NCBI RefSeq assembly: GCF_050920415.1
Contig: NZ_CP169309.1
DNA from: Escherichia coli
GTDB lineage: Bacteria; Pseudomonadota; Gammaproteobacteria; Enterobacterales; Enterobacteriaceae
DNA: 64,000 nt
Direction: 5' to 3' (one strand)
The notes beneath the pieces are model-generated. The model worked only from the letters and a program-made list of their open reading frames with translations, made no database searches and was not told where the DNA came from. This document shows, piece by piece, positions 2,986 to 21,725 of this stretch (position 1 is the stretch's first letter; the number at the start of each line of letters is the position of its first letter). A program made the translations under genes and the position numbers.

Positions 2986-3374
2986 GCCGGATAGGCTCCG
3001 TGTGGTAACTGAAAATGCGGTCCGTCTTTCAGGGTCTTCCAGTCGCCGCCCCATTCCACCGGAATATTCAGCTCCCGGCTGGCCTGTCTGAATGCTGCTG
3101 CGATTTTTTCGTACAGCGGCCATTCCCATGACACCTGGCTGCCGACATAAGCCACAACATCCACGGCATGCCCCGTAAGGTGGCGGCTGTTCATGGTCTG
3201 GCTCTTACCTGTGGCCACAAGTTGCTTCTGGCGGTAACGGCTGCGCAACCCTTCGGTGATACCAAAATCCACTTCCGAGATTTCCAGTGCCCGTCGGGTC
3301 ACTTTCACCAGATCAGGATTTACGCCCTGCAAATTCTTTTCGCTCCGGCTGCTGAATTTAAATGTGTTGCTCAT
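2982..3374 (-). CDS. endolysin, peptidase M15-type (L-alanyl-D-glutamate peptidase family)
   Basis: 130 aa with SRHLTGHAVD zinc-binding motif typical of M15 phage endolysins; sits between holin and spanins. Confidence 0.7.
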   Translation of the reverse strand: MSNTFKFSSRSEKNLQGVNPDLVKVTRRALEISEVDFGITEGLRSRYRQKQLVATGKSQTMNSRHLTGHAVDVVAYVGSQVSWEWPLYEKIAAAFRQASRELNIPVEWGGDWKTLKDGPHFQLPHGAYPA

Positions 3375-3694
3375 TCGTCCTTCTCCTTCACCCTGCGATT
3401 AAAGGCCGCAATAACCTTGTCGCGTGCTTTCTCTGCGCCCATAAAACCGATTGATGCGCCGATAAACGTCACGGCATCTTCAGGAAACCCGAAGAAGCGC
3501 AACGACCCGGCCACGGCCATGGCAAGAACGCCGCACGCCAGCGATCCCGTTACGGTCTGAACCAGTGTTCGTCCGTCATAAAGACTCATCAGCGCGGAAA
3601 TGCTGACTGCCGCGCCTACTGCATACACCGTTGGCAGGTGGTCAAAGAGCCACGCAATAACCTGCTCTGTGATCCCTGTTTGAATGGTGCTCAC
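3371..3694 (-). CDS. holin (GTG start)
   Basis: 107-aa product from GTG at 3694 with hydrophobic helices (AVGAAVSISALMSL, ACGVLAMAVAGSL); longer upstream ORF extension overlaps gene X and is rejected. Confidence 0.6.
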   Translation of the reverse strand: MSTIQTGITEQVIAWLFDHLPTVYAVGAAVSISALMSLYDGRTLVQTVTGSLACGVLAMAVAGSLRFFGFPEDAVTFIGASIGFMGAEKARDKVIAAFNRRVKEKDE

Positions 3695-3696
3695 TG

Positions 3697-3903
3697 CTAC
3701 TCCCCCCACAACTGAATCATTTCTCGTTTCTTCTTCTCCGGCTCCGGCATCTCCACGTCCTGCCCGGCGTCCAGAAATACCTGCTGACAGAGTCCGGGGT
3801 TGGCATCCAGCACCTTTTCGGTGACGCCCTGCGTCGTGCCGTAGTACCGGAAACAGAGCGAATCCACGGTGTCGCCTTCCAGTGCCTTCACTTTCATCAG
3901 CAC
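3697..3903 (-). CDS. tail protein X
   Basis: 68-aa ORF between L and the holin, same size and position as P2 gpX. Confidence 0.7.
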   Translation of the reverse strand: MLMKVKALEGDTVDSLCFRYYGTTQGVTEKVLDANPGLCQQVFLDAGQDVEMPEPEKKKREMIQLWGE

Positions 3904-4400
3904 AGCTCCGCAAAGATTCGCGGGCGGCGCAGAATGTCAGAGATGGCCCAGCTCACATCGCGCCACAAATCCGATGTCTGTATATCCAGTGCGTCCGCGC
4001 GGCGGTCGCCCTTATCCGTTGTGTCCGCATCGCGGTAACGCTCCAGAATCAGGGCGCGTGTGGCGGTATAAACGGCATTGCGCCAGTGCCAGAGATTGAC
4101 GCTTTCTCCGTTAATTACGGGTGCCGGAACATCGGCCAGCGTCTGATGGCCAGCCGCCTGTTGTTCCTGCTGCCACGCTTCCAGCTCGCGGGTAACGTGT
4201 GCCACGGCCCCGGTGGCGGTATGCAGCAGGCGGGAGGTGGTCACACGGCCCGGCAGTCGTATCGCCAGACGCAGCTCACGCAGCACAATATCCGGCCAGA
4301 ATGCGCCCGCTGAAATACGGGTATCACCATCATCGGTATCGGTGATGTCGTCCTCTGCGGGTCCGGGGTTGGTTCTGGCAACCATACTCATGGGGTTCAC
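3897..4400 (-). CDS. head completion/stabilisation protein L
   Basis: 167-aa ORF downstream of terminase M; P2 gpL position. Confidence 0.7.
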   Translation of the reverse strand: MNPMSMVARTNPGPAEDDITDTDDGDTRISAGAFWPDIVLRELRLAIRLPGRVTTSRLLHTATGAVAHVTRELEAWQQEQQAAGHQTLADVPAPVINGESVNLWHWRNAVYTATRALILERYRDADTTDKGDRRADALDIQTSDLWRDVSWAISDILRRPRIFAELC

Positions 4401-12353: not shown

Positions 12354-12665
12354 TTATTCGGGAAATAACGCCCGGATATTTCCGGCCATCTGACTGGTTA
12401 TCTGTGCGGCTGATACTGGCTGTGACGCGGGGCGTTCTGTCCTGGGTTGTGTCACTGATAACGCCTCATCATCAGCCCATGCAGCCAGTCGGTAAGCCTC
12501 TGCCGGATTCATTTTCAGTAGTGCCAGCCCGGCCAGAAAAGCCACGCGTTGACCACTTTTGCGGGCTTCTGGTGTAAGGCTGTCCAGCCAGGCGCATGCT
12601 TCGCCTTCGTTCTTGACGGCGGCGGGCTTCAGATAGAAACTTATCCGTCTGGTTGGTGTCGTCAT
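12354..12665 (-). CDS. ParR-like centromere-binding protein (ribbon-helix-helix)
   Basis: 103 aa; RRISFYLKP...WLDSL...FLAGLALL...NIRALFPE resembles recalled plasmid R1 ParR (RRTIAFKLNP...TLDSI...LTAGLALY...ILRSLFPKE); directly downstream of the ParM-like gene with AAGGAG Shine-Dalgarno. Confidence 0.6.
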   Translation of the reverse strand: MTTPTRRISFYLKPAAVKNEGEACAWLDSLTPEARKSGQRVAFLAGLALLKMNPAEAYRLAAWADDEALSVTQPRTERPASQPVSAAQITSQMAGNIRALFPE

Positions 12666-12669
12666 TGGC

Positions 12670-13629
12670 TTACTCCTTGTCCATTGCGTACAGCCCATTA
12701 ACCAGAGCAAACTGTGGCACCCCGTCCGCGATGAAAGTCGCATTAACTCCGCAGGCTTCGCGGATAGCGGGTGCCACAATCTCCGCCCCGCCACCGACAA
12801 CCATCACCCGCCCGTAACCCGAAAAACCCGCCAGCGCGCGGATCACGCGTTGTTTCAGTGTTTCTTCCTTTTCACGAATAACCGCCATCAGGCTGGCGTA
12901 ATGCGCGTCATTGTGGATGTGCTGGCGCAGCCAGGCTTCATCATGGCGATGTTCAATAATGGTATTGGCGATGTGGTGACTGGTGCGCATACCGTTAGTG
13001 GCCATCACCGACAGCACGGCATCGGCCATCAGTGAAACACCTACGTGTGGATCGCAAAACACCTGGCTGATACCTGCCAGTTGTCCCTGAACCTTTGCCA
13101 CATCCAGCGTGGTTCCGCCCAAATCCACAATCAGCAGGGATTCAAACGGACTCATGTCAGCCAGTGCCTTAAAGCCTGCCGGAATGGATTCAGGCATAAC
13201 CCGCACGTTACGGATAGTGAATGCCTCACCGTTCTGGTACTCCACCGGGCGCATAACGTTCGCTTTTTTGCGGTTGATGTTGGCCATGTCCGGCTGTGCG
13301 TTTGTGTCGAAATACTCGCTCAGTGGCAGGGTGACAACCACATCCACCTCCTGTGGCGTGATGCCTGATTTGACCAGCGCGTGATGAATGGCAATGACAT
13401 TCACATCGCTGTATTGGTATTGCGTGTCGGTCGTCTGGACAAAGCGATCGCTGACCGGATCAAAACCATAGCGCACGCCATCAAGCATGTAGTTCGCGGG
13501 CTGCGTGCCACCGAACGGCGCAGACCATTCCGACTTGAAGCTGTTCGGGCTGATGGCGTTGCGGCGTTCGCCGTTCTCAGTCCATGCCAGCTTGATGTTG
13601 GTGGAGCCGTCGTCGATACAAATTTTCAT
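12670..13629 (-). CDS. ParM/StbA-like actin-fold segregation ATPase
   Basis: 319 aa with the ParM nucleotide-binding motifs: MKICIDDGSTNIKLAW (phosphate 1), IVDLGGTTLDV (connect/adenosine), VMVVGGGAEI (phosphate 2). Confidence 0.8.
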   Translation of the reverse strand: MKICIDDGSTNIKLAWTENGERRNAISPNSFKSEWSAPFGGTQPANYMLDGVRYGFDPVSDRFVQTTDTQYQYSDVNVIAIHHALVKSGITPQEVDVVVTLPLSEYFDTNAQPDMANINRKKANVMRPVEYQNGEAFTIRNVRVMPESIPAGFKALADMSPFESLLIVDLGGTTLDVAKVQGQLAGISQVFCDPHVGVSLMADAVLSVMATNGMRTSHHIANTIIEHRHDEAWLRQHIHNDAHYASLMAVIREKEETLKQRVIRALAGFSGYGRVMVVGGGAEIVAPAIREACGVNATFIADGVPQFALVNGLYAMDKE

Positions 13630-18607: not shown

Positions 18608-18811
18608 TTAGCTGTTAGCCAAAGCGTCTTTTAACATCGCCACAAGGTTTACTTCAGGCTTTTCCATTTTGGCGCGTTTGGGGCGGATAATAATTCGACC
18701 GTCAGCCAACATCTTTTTGCATGTATTAAGAGGGATACCTGTTATCTCTGCATATTTCTGCAGGGATACATAGGGGGCATTCACATTGATATTGATGGTT
18801 ATACCTGACAT
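18608..18811 (-). CDS. Cox/Apl-like small HTH regulator (putative excisionase/lytic-switch protein)
   Basis: 67 aa; YVSLQKYAEITGIPLNTCKKMLADGRI resembles the HTH segment of P2 Cox-type proteins; second gene of the operon divergent from the repressor. Confidence 0.5.
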   Translation of the reverse strand: MSGITININVNAPYVSLQKYAEITGIPLNTCKKMLADGRIIIRPKRAKMEKPEVNLVAMLKDALANS

Positions 18812-18827: not shown

Positions 18828-19034
18828 TCAGGAAGATTTGTTTTGTTCTTTCTGGGTTAGCTCTAGGCCGCGAAGGAAGATCATGCGCGCCATGTTAGAG
18901 GATGAGCGTTGTTCTTTAGCTGCCATTTCATCAATGACGGCTCGCTCCTCGAGGGACAGCCGAAGTGCCAGTCTTGGACCTGTGGCGGTGTTACGCGGAA
19001 TGCGTGATCTGGTATCGTGAAGAACTTGTTTCAT
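18828..19034 (-). CDS. small putative DNA-binding regulator (first gene of early lytic operon)
   Basis: 68 aa, divergent from the CI-like repressor; Cro-like position. Confidence 0.4.
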   Translation of the reverse strand: MKQVLHDTRSRIPRNTATGPRLALRLSLEERAVIDEMAAKEQRSSSNMARMIFLRGLELTQKEQNKSS

Positions 19035-19075
19035 AGTGGTATATTGTGATCATCTAATAGCTCGTGAAATCATTT

Positions 19076-19093
19076 TGGTATCAAAAAAGATAC
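19076..19093. promoter_or_regulatory. putative operator palindrome in the divergent switch region
   Basis: Perfect inverted repeat GGTATC-AAAAAA-GATACC between the divergent repressor and early-operon starts. Confidence 0.4.
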
Positions 19094-19109
19094 CTGTCAA
19101 GGTTTTTGT

Positions 19110-19514
19110 ATGAAAAATGATATTGGTCAGCGGTTGCGTGAGGAAAGGGAAAGATTGGGACTTAGTCAAGTTGCCATGAGCGACATTGGTGGAGTCAAAA
19201 AGCTAACTCAGCTTAGATATGAGAAAGGAGATAGCTTTCCTGATGCTGCGTATTTGGCAGCGCTGTCTCGTTTTGGCCTTGATGTTCAGTATGTTGTGTT
19301 GGGAATTCACTCACCTGAAACTTATAACGATGATGAGCAGGAGTTGATTACTCGCTTTCGAGCAGCTTCGTTAGATGTGAAAAACGCGGTGATTGGGGCT
19401 TTAAAAGGTGCGATCAGTGAAAAGGAAACTCAGCCATCAGGACGTGAGTTAAATATTTCTGGTGGTAATAACCGTATTGCTGGTCGTGACTATAACGAAA
19501 CTAAGGGTAGGTGA
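19110..19514 (+). CDS. CI-like immunity repressor, HTH XRE family
   Basis: 134 aa; N-terminal IGQRLREERERLGLSQVAMSDIGGVKKLTQLRYEKG is a classic XRE helix-turn-helix; transcribed toward the integrase as in 186. Confidence 0.75.
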   Translation: MKNDIGQRLREERERLGLSQVAMSDIGGVKKLTQLRYEKGDSFPDAAYLAALSRFGLDVQYVVLGIHSPETYNDDEQELITRFRAASLDVKNAVIGALKGAISEKETQPSGRELNISGGNNRIAGRDYNETKGR

Positions 19515-19529
19515 TAGTAGGGAGGTGAC

Positions 19530-20180
19530 ATGGCCGTCAACTCAAACGGTTCAAACAATCGCGTTGCTGGGCGTGATTTTCACGAAAAGAATATTCAGAT
19601 AGAGCGATATGATGGTTCTCATACCGTCAATATCGCAATCCCTTCGAATAATGATGATGACGATCGCCCTTTGCTTAAGGCTCAGCGTAAGGAGCTAAAT
19701 AGTTTGGTTGCTGCTATTGCAGAAGCTAGCAATACTGAAGCGTTTATTATTTGGCAAAAAGTACATGCTGAGATTGGTGTAGCTGGTATTGATGATATGA
19801 CAGTAAATCAATATAAAACAGCGGAGAGTTTTCTGCATGCAATGCTTGAGCGATGTAAAGATCATGATGCCTGTAAGGCTCTTGTAAGTTTATTACTACG
19901 TAACAGTGAAGACTGTGGACTTCGACAAAAACTTCTGCGGTATTGCCATATCAATTTCGGTACAGGACGTTTAAACGATCTTACTCGTTCTCAGTTACAG
20001 TCTGCATTGTCGTGGTTAGAGCAACAATCGGCATCAAGCCACACAGAGAGTTCGACCTTACCAGAAGTCCGACTTCGTGCTTCAGAATTAATCCGACTTT
20101 ATCCAAAAGAAATAATATTCTTTATCTGCGTAGGGGGTTTGGTAGGCGGTGTCATTTCTAGGGTGCTTTTTAATTTGTAA
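19530..20180 (+). CDS. cargo protein, C-terminally membrane-anchored, unknown function
   Basis: 216 aa, GGGAGG Shine-Dalgarno; C-terminal TM helix IIFFICVGGLVGGVISRVLF; N-terminus repeats a peptide motif found at the repressor C-terminus. Confidence 0.55.
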   Translation: MAVNSNGSNNRVAGRDFHEKNIQIERYDGSHTVNIAIPSNNDDDDRPLLKAQRKELNSLVAAIAEASNTEAFIIWQKVHAEIGVAGIDDMTVNQYKTAESFLHAMLERCKDHDACKALVSLLLRNSEDCGLRQKLLRYCHINFGTGRLNDLTRSQLQSALSWLEQQSASSHTESSTLPEVRLRASELIRLYPKEIIFFICVGGLVGGVISRVLFNL

Positions 20181-20209
20181 TCTTACTTGAGCTAAATTGA
20201 GGTAATGAT

Positions 20210-20557
20210 ATGAAAGTAAAAAAGGTTCAACTATTAGTTACTTTTTTATCTATGTTTTCTTTTTCCGCCGTCGCAATGCCTTTTAAAACTATTGAACGTG
20301 AGAGTTTCAATGGGGTATGGCCATTTAATACTGATGAGGTTCAATTACAGTGTCTTGATGGTAATCCTTATGTGATGAATTTTGACGATAATAAGTTATA
20401 TGCACTTACAGGTTTGGCTCGAATAAAAGGTAAAACATTTGGTGCGTTACCGTTAGATAACAATAATCCATTTTGGCTAGATAATGATGCCGCCCCAGGG
20501 TTAAAAAAGAGTCTGGGGGATGTCACTAAGGCTGCATTTGATTTATGTGATAAGTAA
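20210..20557 (+). CDS. cargo protein, secreted/periplasmic, unknown function
   Basis: 115 aa with signal peptide MKVKKVQLLVTFLSMFSFSAVA, no lipobox, two Cys in mature part; strongly AT-rich coding sequence. Confidence 0.6.
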   Translation: MKVKKVQLLVTFLSMFSFSAVAMPFKTIERESFNGVWPFNTDEVQLQCLDGNPYVMNFDDNKLYALTGLARIKGKTFGALPLDNNNPFWLDNDAAPGLKKSLGDVTKAAFDLCDK

Positions 20558-20562
20558 CTAAA

Positions 20563-21564
20563 ATGTCGGTTCGTAAGATTCCATCAGGTAAATGGCTTTG
20601 CGAATGTTATCCCTACGGGGCATCGGGAAAACGCATTCGTAAACAGTTTGCGACAAAAAGTGAGGCGCTCTCTTATGAGCGCCGTTTAATGAATAGTAGA
20701 GTTGGAGACGAGTTTCAAGATGGTTCTGGTCCTCGTCTTTCTGAGTTGATTGCTCGTTGGTTTGAGATGTACGGTAAAACCTTGTCCTCTGGTGCAGAGC
20801 GCAAAGTCAAACTTGAGGCGATTTGTTCCAGGCTGGGAGATCCATTTGCTTCTCAGTTTGACAAAAATATGTTTGCTACTTATCGGGAAAGAAGGCTATC
20901 AGGAGAATGGAATCCCAAGGGGAAGAAAAAACTTAGTGAAGCAACCGTTAATCGCGAGCAGTCATATCTACATGCTGTTTTTGCCGAACTGAAGCGCCTT
21001 GGGGAGTGGTCTGGTGAAAACCCCCTGACTGGTATTCGCAAGTTTCGTGAGGAAGAAAAGGAACTGGCGTTTCTGTATGTAGATGAGATTGAACGCCTTC
21101 TGATTGCGTGTGATGAGTCACGGAATAAAGATTTGGGGGTTGTTGTCCGTATTGGGCTTGCGACTGGTGCTCGGTGGAGTGAAGCAGAAGGATTAAAGCA
21201 ATCTCAAGTACTGCCCGGTCGAATCACATTTGTTAAAACTAAAGGAAAGAAGAACCGCACTGTACCGATTTCACCTCAATTGCAGGCTATGCTTCCTAAA
21301 AAACGAGGAGCGCTATTTTCACCATGTTATGAGGCTTTTGACGCTGCAATTAAGAGAGCGAAGATCGAGCTTCCTGATGGGCAATTAACTCATGTGCTAC
21401 GTCACACGTTTGCCAGTCATTTTATGATGCGGGGCGGAAATATTCTTGTGTTGCAAAAAATACTGGGGCATAGCGATATAAAAATGACTATGCGTTATGC
21501 GCATTTTGCTCCAGGTCATTTAGAGGCTGCTGTTGAATTGAACCCTTTTGACAATAGAGGGTAA
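20563..21564 (+). CDS. int: prophage integrase (tyrosine recombinase)
   Basis: 333 aa; catalytic motifs HVLRHTFASHF and TMRYAH; last prophage gene before the tRNA fragment. Confidence 0.85.
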   Translation: MSVRKIPSGKWLCECYPYGASGKRIRKQFATKSEALSYERRLMNSRVGDEFQDGSGPRLSELIARWFEMYGKTLSSGAERKVKLEAICSRLGDPFASQFDKNMFATYRERRLSGEWNPKGKKKLSEATVNREQSYLHAVFAELKRLGEWSGENPLTGIRKFREEEKELAFLYVDEIERLLIACDESRNKDLGVVVRIGLATGARWSEAEGLKQSQVLPGRITFVKTKGKKNRTVPISPQLQAMLPKKRGALFSPCYEAFDAAIKRAKIELPDGQLTHVLRHTFASHFMMRGGNILVLQKILGHSDIKMTMRYAHFAPGHLEAAVELNPFDNRG

Positions 21565-21670
21565 AAAGTGGCGATAAAAAGTGACAATAGATTCAAATGG
21601 CGTTGTATAGAGCCATTTTCAAAGTTAATAAAATCATAAGGTTATGATTTATAAATGGTGGTTGATAGTT

Positions 21671-21725
21671 TTTAAAATCCCTCGGCGTTCGCGCTGTGCG
21701 GGTTCAAGTCCCGCTCCGGGTACCA
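21671..21725 (+). other. leuZ: att junction: 3' 55 nt of tRNA-Leu(UAA) (leuZ-like) ending in CCA; partial gene only
   Basis: TTTAAAATCCCTCGGCGTTCGCGCTGTGCGGGTTCAAGTCCCGCTCCGGGTACCA matches the anticodon loop to 3' end of leuZ as recalled; the 5' half is replaced by phage DNA with only degenerate similarity. Confidence 0.7.

Follow-up and report, generated by a model that had tools for sequence, protein, structure and literature searches.

A predicted tail-anchored Flk_N protein carries a head motif that matches and co-varies with the tail of the neighbouring prophage repressor in Escherichia coli

We analyzed a 64,000-nt stretch of Escherichia coli DNA (contig NZ_CP169309.1, hereafter the window), of which positions ~1-21,700 are prophage and the remainder is chromosome. 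Two genes of this P2-like prophage, encoding proteins of 216 and 115 residues (ORF216 and ORF115; ORF, open reading frame), lie between the immunity repressor and the integrase, and a first-pass annotation of the sequence had proposed that they are a two-gene cargo specifying superinfection-exclusion or receptor-masking factors of the envelope. We find that the N-terminus of ORF216 carries the same motif as the C-terminal tail of the repressor and that the two motifs co-vary among related prophages. Judging from these sequence comparisons, ORF216 appears to be a fixed part of the immunity cassette and not inserted cargo, and ORF115 to occupy a swappable slot behind it.

The two genes were found where they had been placed, in an operon of four genes that all lie on the + strand of the ORF list and are separated by gaps of 15, 29 and 5 nt:

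19110..19514, + strand, XRE-type helix-turn-helix (HTH) immunity repressor, 134 residues, first gene of the lysogeny operon (HTH_31/HTH_3; phrog_8/phrog_4)
19530..20180, + strand, ORF216, predicted tail-anchored Flk_N-domain protein (phrog_5825, E 2e-102; PF27202 on homologues)
20210..20557, + strand, ORF115, YebY/DUF2511-family protein in the variable slot (Pfam DUF2511; phrog_2950, E 9e-40)
20563..21564, + strand, P2-family tyrosine integrase, last gene of the lysogeny operon (phrog_1, E 1.4e-76)

The proposed co-orientation of both genes with the repressor also stands. No terminator-like site was seen on the + strand between the four genes, and ribosome-binding sites precede ORF216 (GGAGG) and ORF115 (GAGG).

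The repressor had been described as CI-like, in a comparison with 186-type phages. By family it is different: the only Pfam matches are to HTH_31, HTH_19 and HTH_3, and no match was found to the 186-type CI family (PF07022, ~190 residues with an oligomerisation domain). The protein is thus an XRE-type HTH repressor and not a homologue of 186 CI or P2 C. In a structure model in which it was fused to ORF216, described below, a helical body extends to about residue 106 and is followed by a disordered tail. It is this tail that carries the first copy of the motif, with the second lying close to the start of ORF216:

19452..19499, + strand, repressor C-terminal tail motif NISGGNNRIAGRDYNE, residues 115-130 (from the sequence; conserved in homologous repressors)
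19539..19586, + strand, ORF216 N-terminal head motif NSNGSNNRVAGRDFHE, residues 4-19 (strongly conserved; predicted local distance difference test score, pLDDT, 47-63)

The tail motif is followed by a basic end, TKGR, and then by three stop codons, the end of the repressor reading LNISGGNNRIAGRDYNETKGR. Homologous repressors have the same range of tails, each with a short basic stretch at its end. ORF216 starts with MAVNSNGSNNRVAGRDFHEKNIQI, and the invariant columns of its head are S5, G7, N10, R11, D16 and E19. Few parts of the protein are as well conserved as the head, though it is predicted to be disordered.

The motif is rich in G and N and spans ~16 residues, including NNRIAGRDYNE in the repressor tail and NNRVAGRDFHE in the ORF216 head. 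The tail-head match in the window scores 62, vs. 20.6 ± 3.8 for shuffles. In all the pairs examined, local alignment of tail with head gave scores of 33-79, compared to ~20 ± 4 for shuffled tails, and the observed score was reached by at most 11 of 2,000 shuffles in any pair. The core motif occurs twice in a six-frame translation of the 64-kb window, once in the repressor tail and once in the ORF216 head. By hand count, the two stretches coding for the motif are ~72% identical, with many synonymous differences, which argues that the similarity is maintained, or selected, at the protein level.

Tails and heads of the related loci fall into six classes of motif:

Class 1, the window and most P2-like loci: tail NRxAGRD[YF], head NRxAGRD[YF]
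Class 2, Mu-like, locus L022: tail VGQYIEGSVNQAG, head VGQVAEGDINNFG
Class 3, Mu-like, locus L026: tail HGDVLGNVIKGDVTM, head NGDVGNVVSGDVTI
Class 4, Mu-like, Pectobacterium, locus L029: tail QIFNGDISGQFAGNQIIN, head QEFNGTAQGQFSSRDIIN
Class 5, Mu-like, Gilliamella, locus L031: tail GQIAGGNIY, head EQIAGRDIY
Class 6, Ralstonia phage, locus L038: tail GGSNNVQIGSV, head DGNGNVQIGKV

In each class the tail most resembles the head of its own partner, and the cognate assignment has the top total score among all 720 assignments of the six classes. Classes 1 and 4 both occur in Pectobacterium, where each forms its own cognate pair, and this makes it unlikely that one host factor reads every motif. 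The head motif is present in nearly all phage-type members of the ORF216 family and absent from the chromosomal Flk proteins to which the family is related. In Ralstonia phage YO077_2 (L038 2399-3935), the repressor and the Flk_N gene converge, yet they share the NVQIG-containing motif; the match between motifs is therefore independent of the two genes being neighbours in one operon. The Flk_N ORF of this phage overlaps a zinc-ribbon/transmembrane ORF on the other strand.

Two other origins for the paired motifs were considered and rejected. A recent DNA duplication or gene conversion is ruled out by the ~72% identity, the synonymous differences and the location of the Ralstonia pair on opposite strands. 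Synthesis of a repressor-ORF216 fusion by read-through or frameshifting is ruled out by the three consecutive stops, and the relative frame of the two genes is not conserved among loci. No fused, single-chain ancestor was found among 91 representatives of the ORF216 family.

Conservation of gene order points in the same direction as the motif. In the readable related loci, the Flk_N gene directly follows a repressor of the same type (~127-140 residues) and the next gene varies. The pair is found in P2-like prophages of E. coli (in several variants), Klebsiella, Izhakiella, Mixta, Citrobacter, Enterobacter and others, at two attachment sites, and it also occupies the repressor position of Mu-like transposable prophages, including those of Pectobacterium and Gilliamella. 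One further locus has the same gene layout, with a repressor gene that is uncalled in its annotation. The third position is filled as follows:

DUF2511/YebY: the window, L016, L019, L033
DUF8087: L002, L007, L013, L018
288-residue protein with a BRCT-like start: L003, L017
244-residue membrane protein: L014
VasI: L023
Lipoproteins: L022, L025, L031

In Klebsiella prophages at a single attachment site, either the 288-residue gene or YebY is found in the slot, with the Flk_N gene constant. The idea of a two-gene cargo thus holds for ORF115, whose slot is swapped in related prophages, but not for ORF216, which is kept with the repressor in every related locus examined.

Immediately downstream of Flk_N, most lineages have a gene for a lipoprotein or a secreted or membrane protein, from unrelated families, and the slot thus seems to favour envelope proteins. 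Genes of this envelope type lie at the following positions:

L022, 4138-4665
L025, 3591-4064
L031, 3999-4373
L019, 4140-4505
L023, 4278-4922
L014, 4653-5387

The BRCT-like start of the 288-residue slot protein of Klebsiella and Enterobacter (L003 5647-6510) resembles that of orf2 of Vibrio phage K139 (L011 2194-3099) with an E value of 5e-4; BRCT-type proteins thus turn up repeatedly in P2-family phages in the interval from repressor to integrase. A distant metagenomic relative (L021 707-1362) has, after Flk_N, a gene for a 98-residue membrane protein with a further N-terminal G/N-rich motif, VVGDNNITASGDLNIG, and this gene is itself followed by one for a BamE-like lipoprotein. The 98-residue protein could be a third motif-bearing partner.

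The first-pass annotation had recognized neither of the two proteins. Both can in fact be assigned to families, ORF216 through its Flk_N domain and ORF115 as a YebY/DUF2511 protein. ORF216 is matched end to end by phrog_5825 (E 2e-102), and its residues 37-166 match the N-terminal region of Flk (residues 20-149 of the NCBIfam Flk model) with an E value of 8e-16. It is not Flk proper, as it scores 58 bits against the Flk equivalog NF007987, for which the cutoff is 353. PF27202 (Flk_N) is precomputed on nearly all ORF216 homologues, and a weak match was also seen to phrog_6521, which is labelled a membrane-protein moron. The family is small: among 1.84 billion representative proteins, 91 members were detected at E ≤0.001. 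A structure model built from a 55-sequence alignment (mean pLDDT 86.5) leaves residues 1-44 disordered and contains two further elements:

19665..20054, + strand, all-helical Flk_N domain of ORF216, residues 46-175 (pLDDT ~97)
20103..20174, + strand, predicted C-terminal transmembrane tail anchor of ORF216, residues 192-215 (a helix in the model; the hydrophobic C-terminus is found family-wide)

The model is consistent with a tail-anchored protein that is nearly all cytoplasmic. The prediction that both proteins go to the envelope is therefore retained, given the terminal hydrophobic helix of ORF216 and the signal peptide of ORF115. That ORF216 might be a receptor-masking factor is not: it is predicted to face the cytoplasm and so could not mask a receptor.

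The AlphaFold database yielded fold matches of the Flk_N domain only to family members and Flk, and the viral and AlphaFold structure libraries together gave only these and weak matches to small helical modules. A search of solved structures by sequence gave no significant match to Flk_N. A Pfam scan of 55 family members returned only weak GemA and other chance-level matches; those to the phage Mu GemA family occurred in seven of the 55 members (best E 0.015), and may be due to chance or to a distant link with Mu early-region proteins.

We propose that ORF216 is the second gene of a conserved immunity cassette, bound to the repressor through the shared motif, and that the swappable slot is filled by ORF115, a periplasmic protein of the YebY family. 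This is the best explanation we have for the data, and we would give it an even chance of being correct. Since the N-terminus of ORF216 copies the repressor tail, the protein would belong with the immunity switch and not with the cell surface. From the matching sequences, we infer that the repressor tail binds the ORF216 head directly. Through such binding, some of the repressor molecules, or a signal that acts on them, would be tied to the cytoplasmic face of the inner membrane. Less certainly, the contact would tune the lysogeny switch, either by titrating the repressor or by inactivating or stabilising it on a signal, so that the level of active repressor would be set or modulated by a buffer or by a signal sensed at the membrane. 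No receptor masking would be involved in the action of ORF216. A precedent of sorts is Mlc, a soluble repressor that is held by PtsG and thereby controlled via the cytoplasmic face of a membrane protein. Mlc and PtsG differ from the present pair in that they serve host sugar sensing, lack matched terminal motifs and operate outside a phage switch.

A number of observations weigh against this proposal. Within the main motif class, cognate pairs score no better than non-cognate ones. The Ralstonia genes converge and are not in tandem, the partner ORF has no obvious membrane anchor and the record is unverified. The model of the repressor fused to ORF216 left both motifs disordered (pLDDT ~30), with no ordered 1:1 complex. 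It should be noted that this model had a 30-residue flexible linker, a 15-row alignment and one copy of each chain; we count it as no support for a contact between tail and head, but not as disproof. It also looks wasteful to co-express a repressor with the protein that sequesters it, unless the latter acts as a buffer or a sensor. Lastly, for ORF115, no similarity was found to the Glo protein of K139 (BLASTP E 7.5), and no known defence model was matched in PADLOC.

One alternative, which we consider unlikely, is that both genes are accessory cargo made in lysogens to exclude superinfecting phages, with ORF216 blocking DNA entry at the inner membrane and ORF115 acting in the periplasm. Both proteins are indeed predicted to be envelope-bound and share an operon with the repressor, many related loci have a gene for a lipoprotein, secreted or membrane protein after Flk_N, and the weak phrog_6521 match of ORF216 carries the moron label. 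A parallel is offered by Vibrio phage K139 (cI - orf2 - glo - int), also of the P2 family, where two extra genes lie between repressor and integrase and where Glo, at the position of ORF115, is a small periplasmic protein involved in phage exclusion (GenBank annotation and PMC4870250). However, K139 orf2 is a BRCT-domain protein and not an Flk_N protein, Glo is dissimilar to ORF115, and no terminal motif is common to K139 cI and orf2. Moreover, unlike cargo, ORF216 stays beside the repressor in different genera and in two phage families as its neighbours change, and it is almost wholly cytoplasmic. Neither ORF216 nor ORF115 matched any of the PADLOC defence-system models, and the cargo explanation leaves the shared motif and its co-variation unaccounted for.

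The layout of the pair is also reminiscent of amyloid-like signalling, in which the two motifs would form a shared cross-beta structure and one protein would template the other, leading to all-or-none inactivation of the repressor or to activation of a membrane killer effector. In Bab/Agp (BASS11), an amyloid signalling pair that functions in anti-phage defence and is found in E. coli prophage hotspots (bioRxiv 10.1101/2024.11.07.622273), as in HET-S/NWD2, a short motif is common to the C-terminus of one protein and the N-terminus of its neighbour, and one partner is at the membrane. The tails and heads described here are rich in G, N, V and I and poor in L, K and P, a bias also reported for bacterial amyloid motifs; the NVQIG core of the Ralstonia class resembles the RHIM/BASS3 signature G-phi-Q-phi-G; and both motifs are disordered in monomer models. 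On the other hand, the main class is strongly charged (R, R, D, E), more so than the motifs of the known pairs, Q is not enriched, and disordered linkers rich in G, N and S have a similar composition. The known pairs combine a pore-former with an NLR- or TPR-type sensor, whereas here an XRE HTH protein is paired with Flk_N, a combination unlike any known amyloid-signalling pair, and the domains of the repressor and ORF216 show no association with NLR-type sensors or Bell/HeLo-type effectors. An irreversible aggregate would, in addition, be risky for a repressor whose activity is needed over generations. We think it improbable that the motifs are amyloid-forming. A self-templating pair in the prophage switch, equally doubtful, would allow a change of state in ORF216, caused for example by envelope damage or phage attack, to spread to the repressor and provoke induction or death, and the motif class would then provide a second layer of immunity specificity among co-resident prophages.

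Somewhat less probable again is that the motifs do not touch and instead both serve as recognition tags by which a third phage factor that evolves along with them, for instance an antirepressor or a protease adaptor, acts on the two proteins. Co-variation by lineage would be expected of a phage-encoded reader no less than of direct binding, the fusion model contains no contact, and some related prophages encode a derepression-family protein. However, the P2-like and Mu-like loci have no such conserved gene in common, and there is no third copy of the core motif in the window; direct pairing is the more parsimonious explanation.

Very improbable, finally, is that ORF216 acts as chromosomal Flk does, binding the flagellar export gate and altering flagellar secretion in lysogens: Flk (Fluke/RflH) of Salmonella and E. 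coli, which inhibits the flagellar secretion specificity switch (PMC13344023), does share with ORF216 a homologous N-terminal helical domain, a C-terminal anchor and a cytoplasmic bulk, but it is a chromosomal, flagellum-linked protein of ~333 residues (vs. 216) that lacks both the head motif and the link to a repressor, the N-domain alone is common to the two (hence the 58 bits vs. a cutoff of 353), and the family also occurs in phages of hosts in which nothing links it to flagella.

If direct pairing is the correct explanation and the motifs mediate contact, maintenance and induction of the prophage would be linked to the cell membrane by an undescribed route. P2 and 186 are the textbook models of the lysogeny switch, and neither has a membrane-bound repressor partner. 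As in these phages, a repressor-integrase operon faces a Cox/Apl operon in the window; in 186, by contrast, the repressor is of a different family and, as the first-pass annotation had correctly stated, cI and int abut, with no partner gene. As far as the literature searched shows, the repressor-ORF216 cassette is undescribed; searches on Flk with prophage, and on tail-anchored with repressor, found nothing relevant. The co-varying tail and head motifs are in our opinion the interesting result, and the prediction they lead to is testable in a common E. coli prophage. Related cassettes are found in Klebsiella, Salmonella, Yersinia, Pectobacterium, Gilliamella and Ralstonia. For those mining prophages for exclusion or defence genes, it is useful that only the gene beside int is the swappable slot.

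The gene in this slot in the window, ORF115, begins with a signal peptide:

20210..20275, + strand, ORF115 signal peptide MKVKKVQLLVTFLSMFSFSAVA followed by MP, residues 1-22, with an AVA/M cleavage site (read from the sequence)

The signal peptide has no lipobox cysteine. ORF115 matches Pfam DUF2511 (PF10709) with an E value of 2.9e-6 and the solved YebY structure 7n0j with an E value of 0.0027. In the alignment with YebY, its Trp37 falls on the conserved Trp, and its Cys48 and Cys113 on the two cysteines of the YebY disulfide (Cys48/Cys113). Its close relatives form 18 clusters in Enterobacterales, and those with readable context lie in the same prophage slot. The placement of ORF115 is not new, as YebY homologues flanked by a recombinase and a phage CI repressor were noted earlier in Enterobacteriaceae (PMC8689200). 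The only studied relatives are YebY of the E. coli AZY operon, which binds copper weakly, and MlbQ, a lantibiotic self-resistance protein proposed to bind the lantibiotic (PMC8689200). ORF115 shares with them the signal peptide, the Trp and the Cys48-Cys113 pair, but it is only ~25% identical to YebY and lies outside the yobA-yebZ-yebY copper operon, between the Flk_N gene and the integrase. It is probably a periplasmic protein made in lysogens as an envelope factor. Its closest analogue by position is K139 Glo, and superinfection exclusion or protection against an agent acting on the envelope would be its most likely role, a plausible proposal that we offer as a reasonable guess.

The two genes had also been described as an AT-rich segment. 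Both are indeed AT-rich, but so is the whole lysogeny operon, with GC contents of 0.437 for the repressor, 0.412 for ORF216, 0.353 for ORF115 and 0.449 for the integrase, compared to 0.526 for the prophage part of the window. The lone outlier is ORF115, with 0.7% of same-size prophage windows being as low.

In RefSeq, the end of the P2-like prophage adjoins yecA-tyrP. The left end is outside the window, and the other attachment site and the tail genes are consequently not visible. No tRNA gene was detected in a scan of the whole window, and an Rfam scan of the region gave no match. Positions 19000-21700 are 99.7% identical to a stretch found in many E. coli chromosomes, and the region is carried (coverage ≥80%) by 515 of 5,426 complete E. 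coli genomes, or roughly one in ten, including those of O157:H7 EDL933 and O26:H11 11368.

Both genes are absent from phages 186 and P2, as had been anticipated, and a search of 50,697 phage records identified a sole record with close copies of ORF216 and ORF115, that of Escherichia phage 520873 (genus Xuanwuvirus); three Ralstonia phages have distant relatives of ORF216 (32-35% identity). In the phage 520873 record (NC_049344, L037), at 3015-4055, both genes are frameshifted, unannotated and recovered as three BLAST pieces each, and the integrase is likewise split in two. The frameshifts are probably sequencing errors.

Upstream of the repressor, the divergent lytic operon and a promoter-like site facing it were identified on the - strand:

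18608..18811, - strand, Cox-like excisionase/repressor, second gene of the divergent lytic operon (phrog_575, E 1.2e-27)
18828..19034, - strand, Arc-like ribbon-helix-helix protein, 68 residues, first gene of the lytic operon and Cro/Apl counterpart (phrog_3431, E 9.8e-29)
19072..19100, - strand, promoter-like site facing the lytic operon: TTGACA, 17 nt, CAAAAT (consensus scan only)

The counterpart of the Arc-like gene in phage 520873 is annotated as an Arc-like repressor. In the window, the RefSeq annotation has a 45-residue hypothetical protein at 18883-19020 (+), opposite the Arc-like gene; this call is probably on the wrong strand and hides the first gene of the lytic operon. Further into the prophage, at 12354-13629 (-), lie ParM-like and ParR-like plasmid partition genes (phrog_691 and phrog_2515, respectively). 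Such genes are unusual for an integrating phage of the P2 type, and their presence hints at a plasmid-like state.

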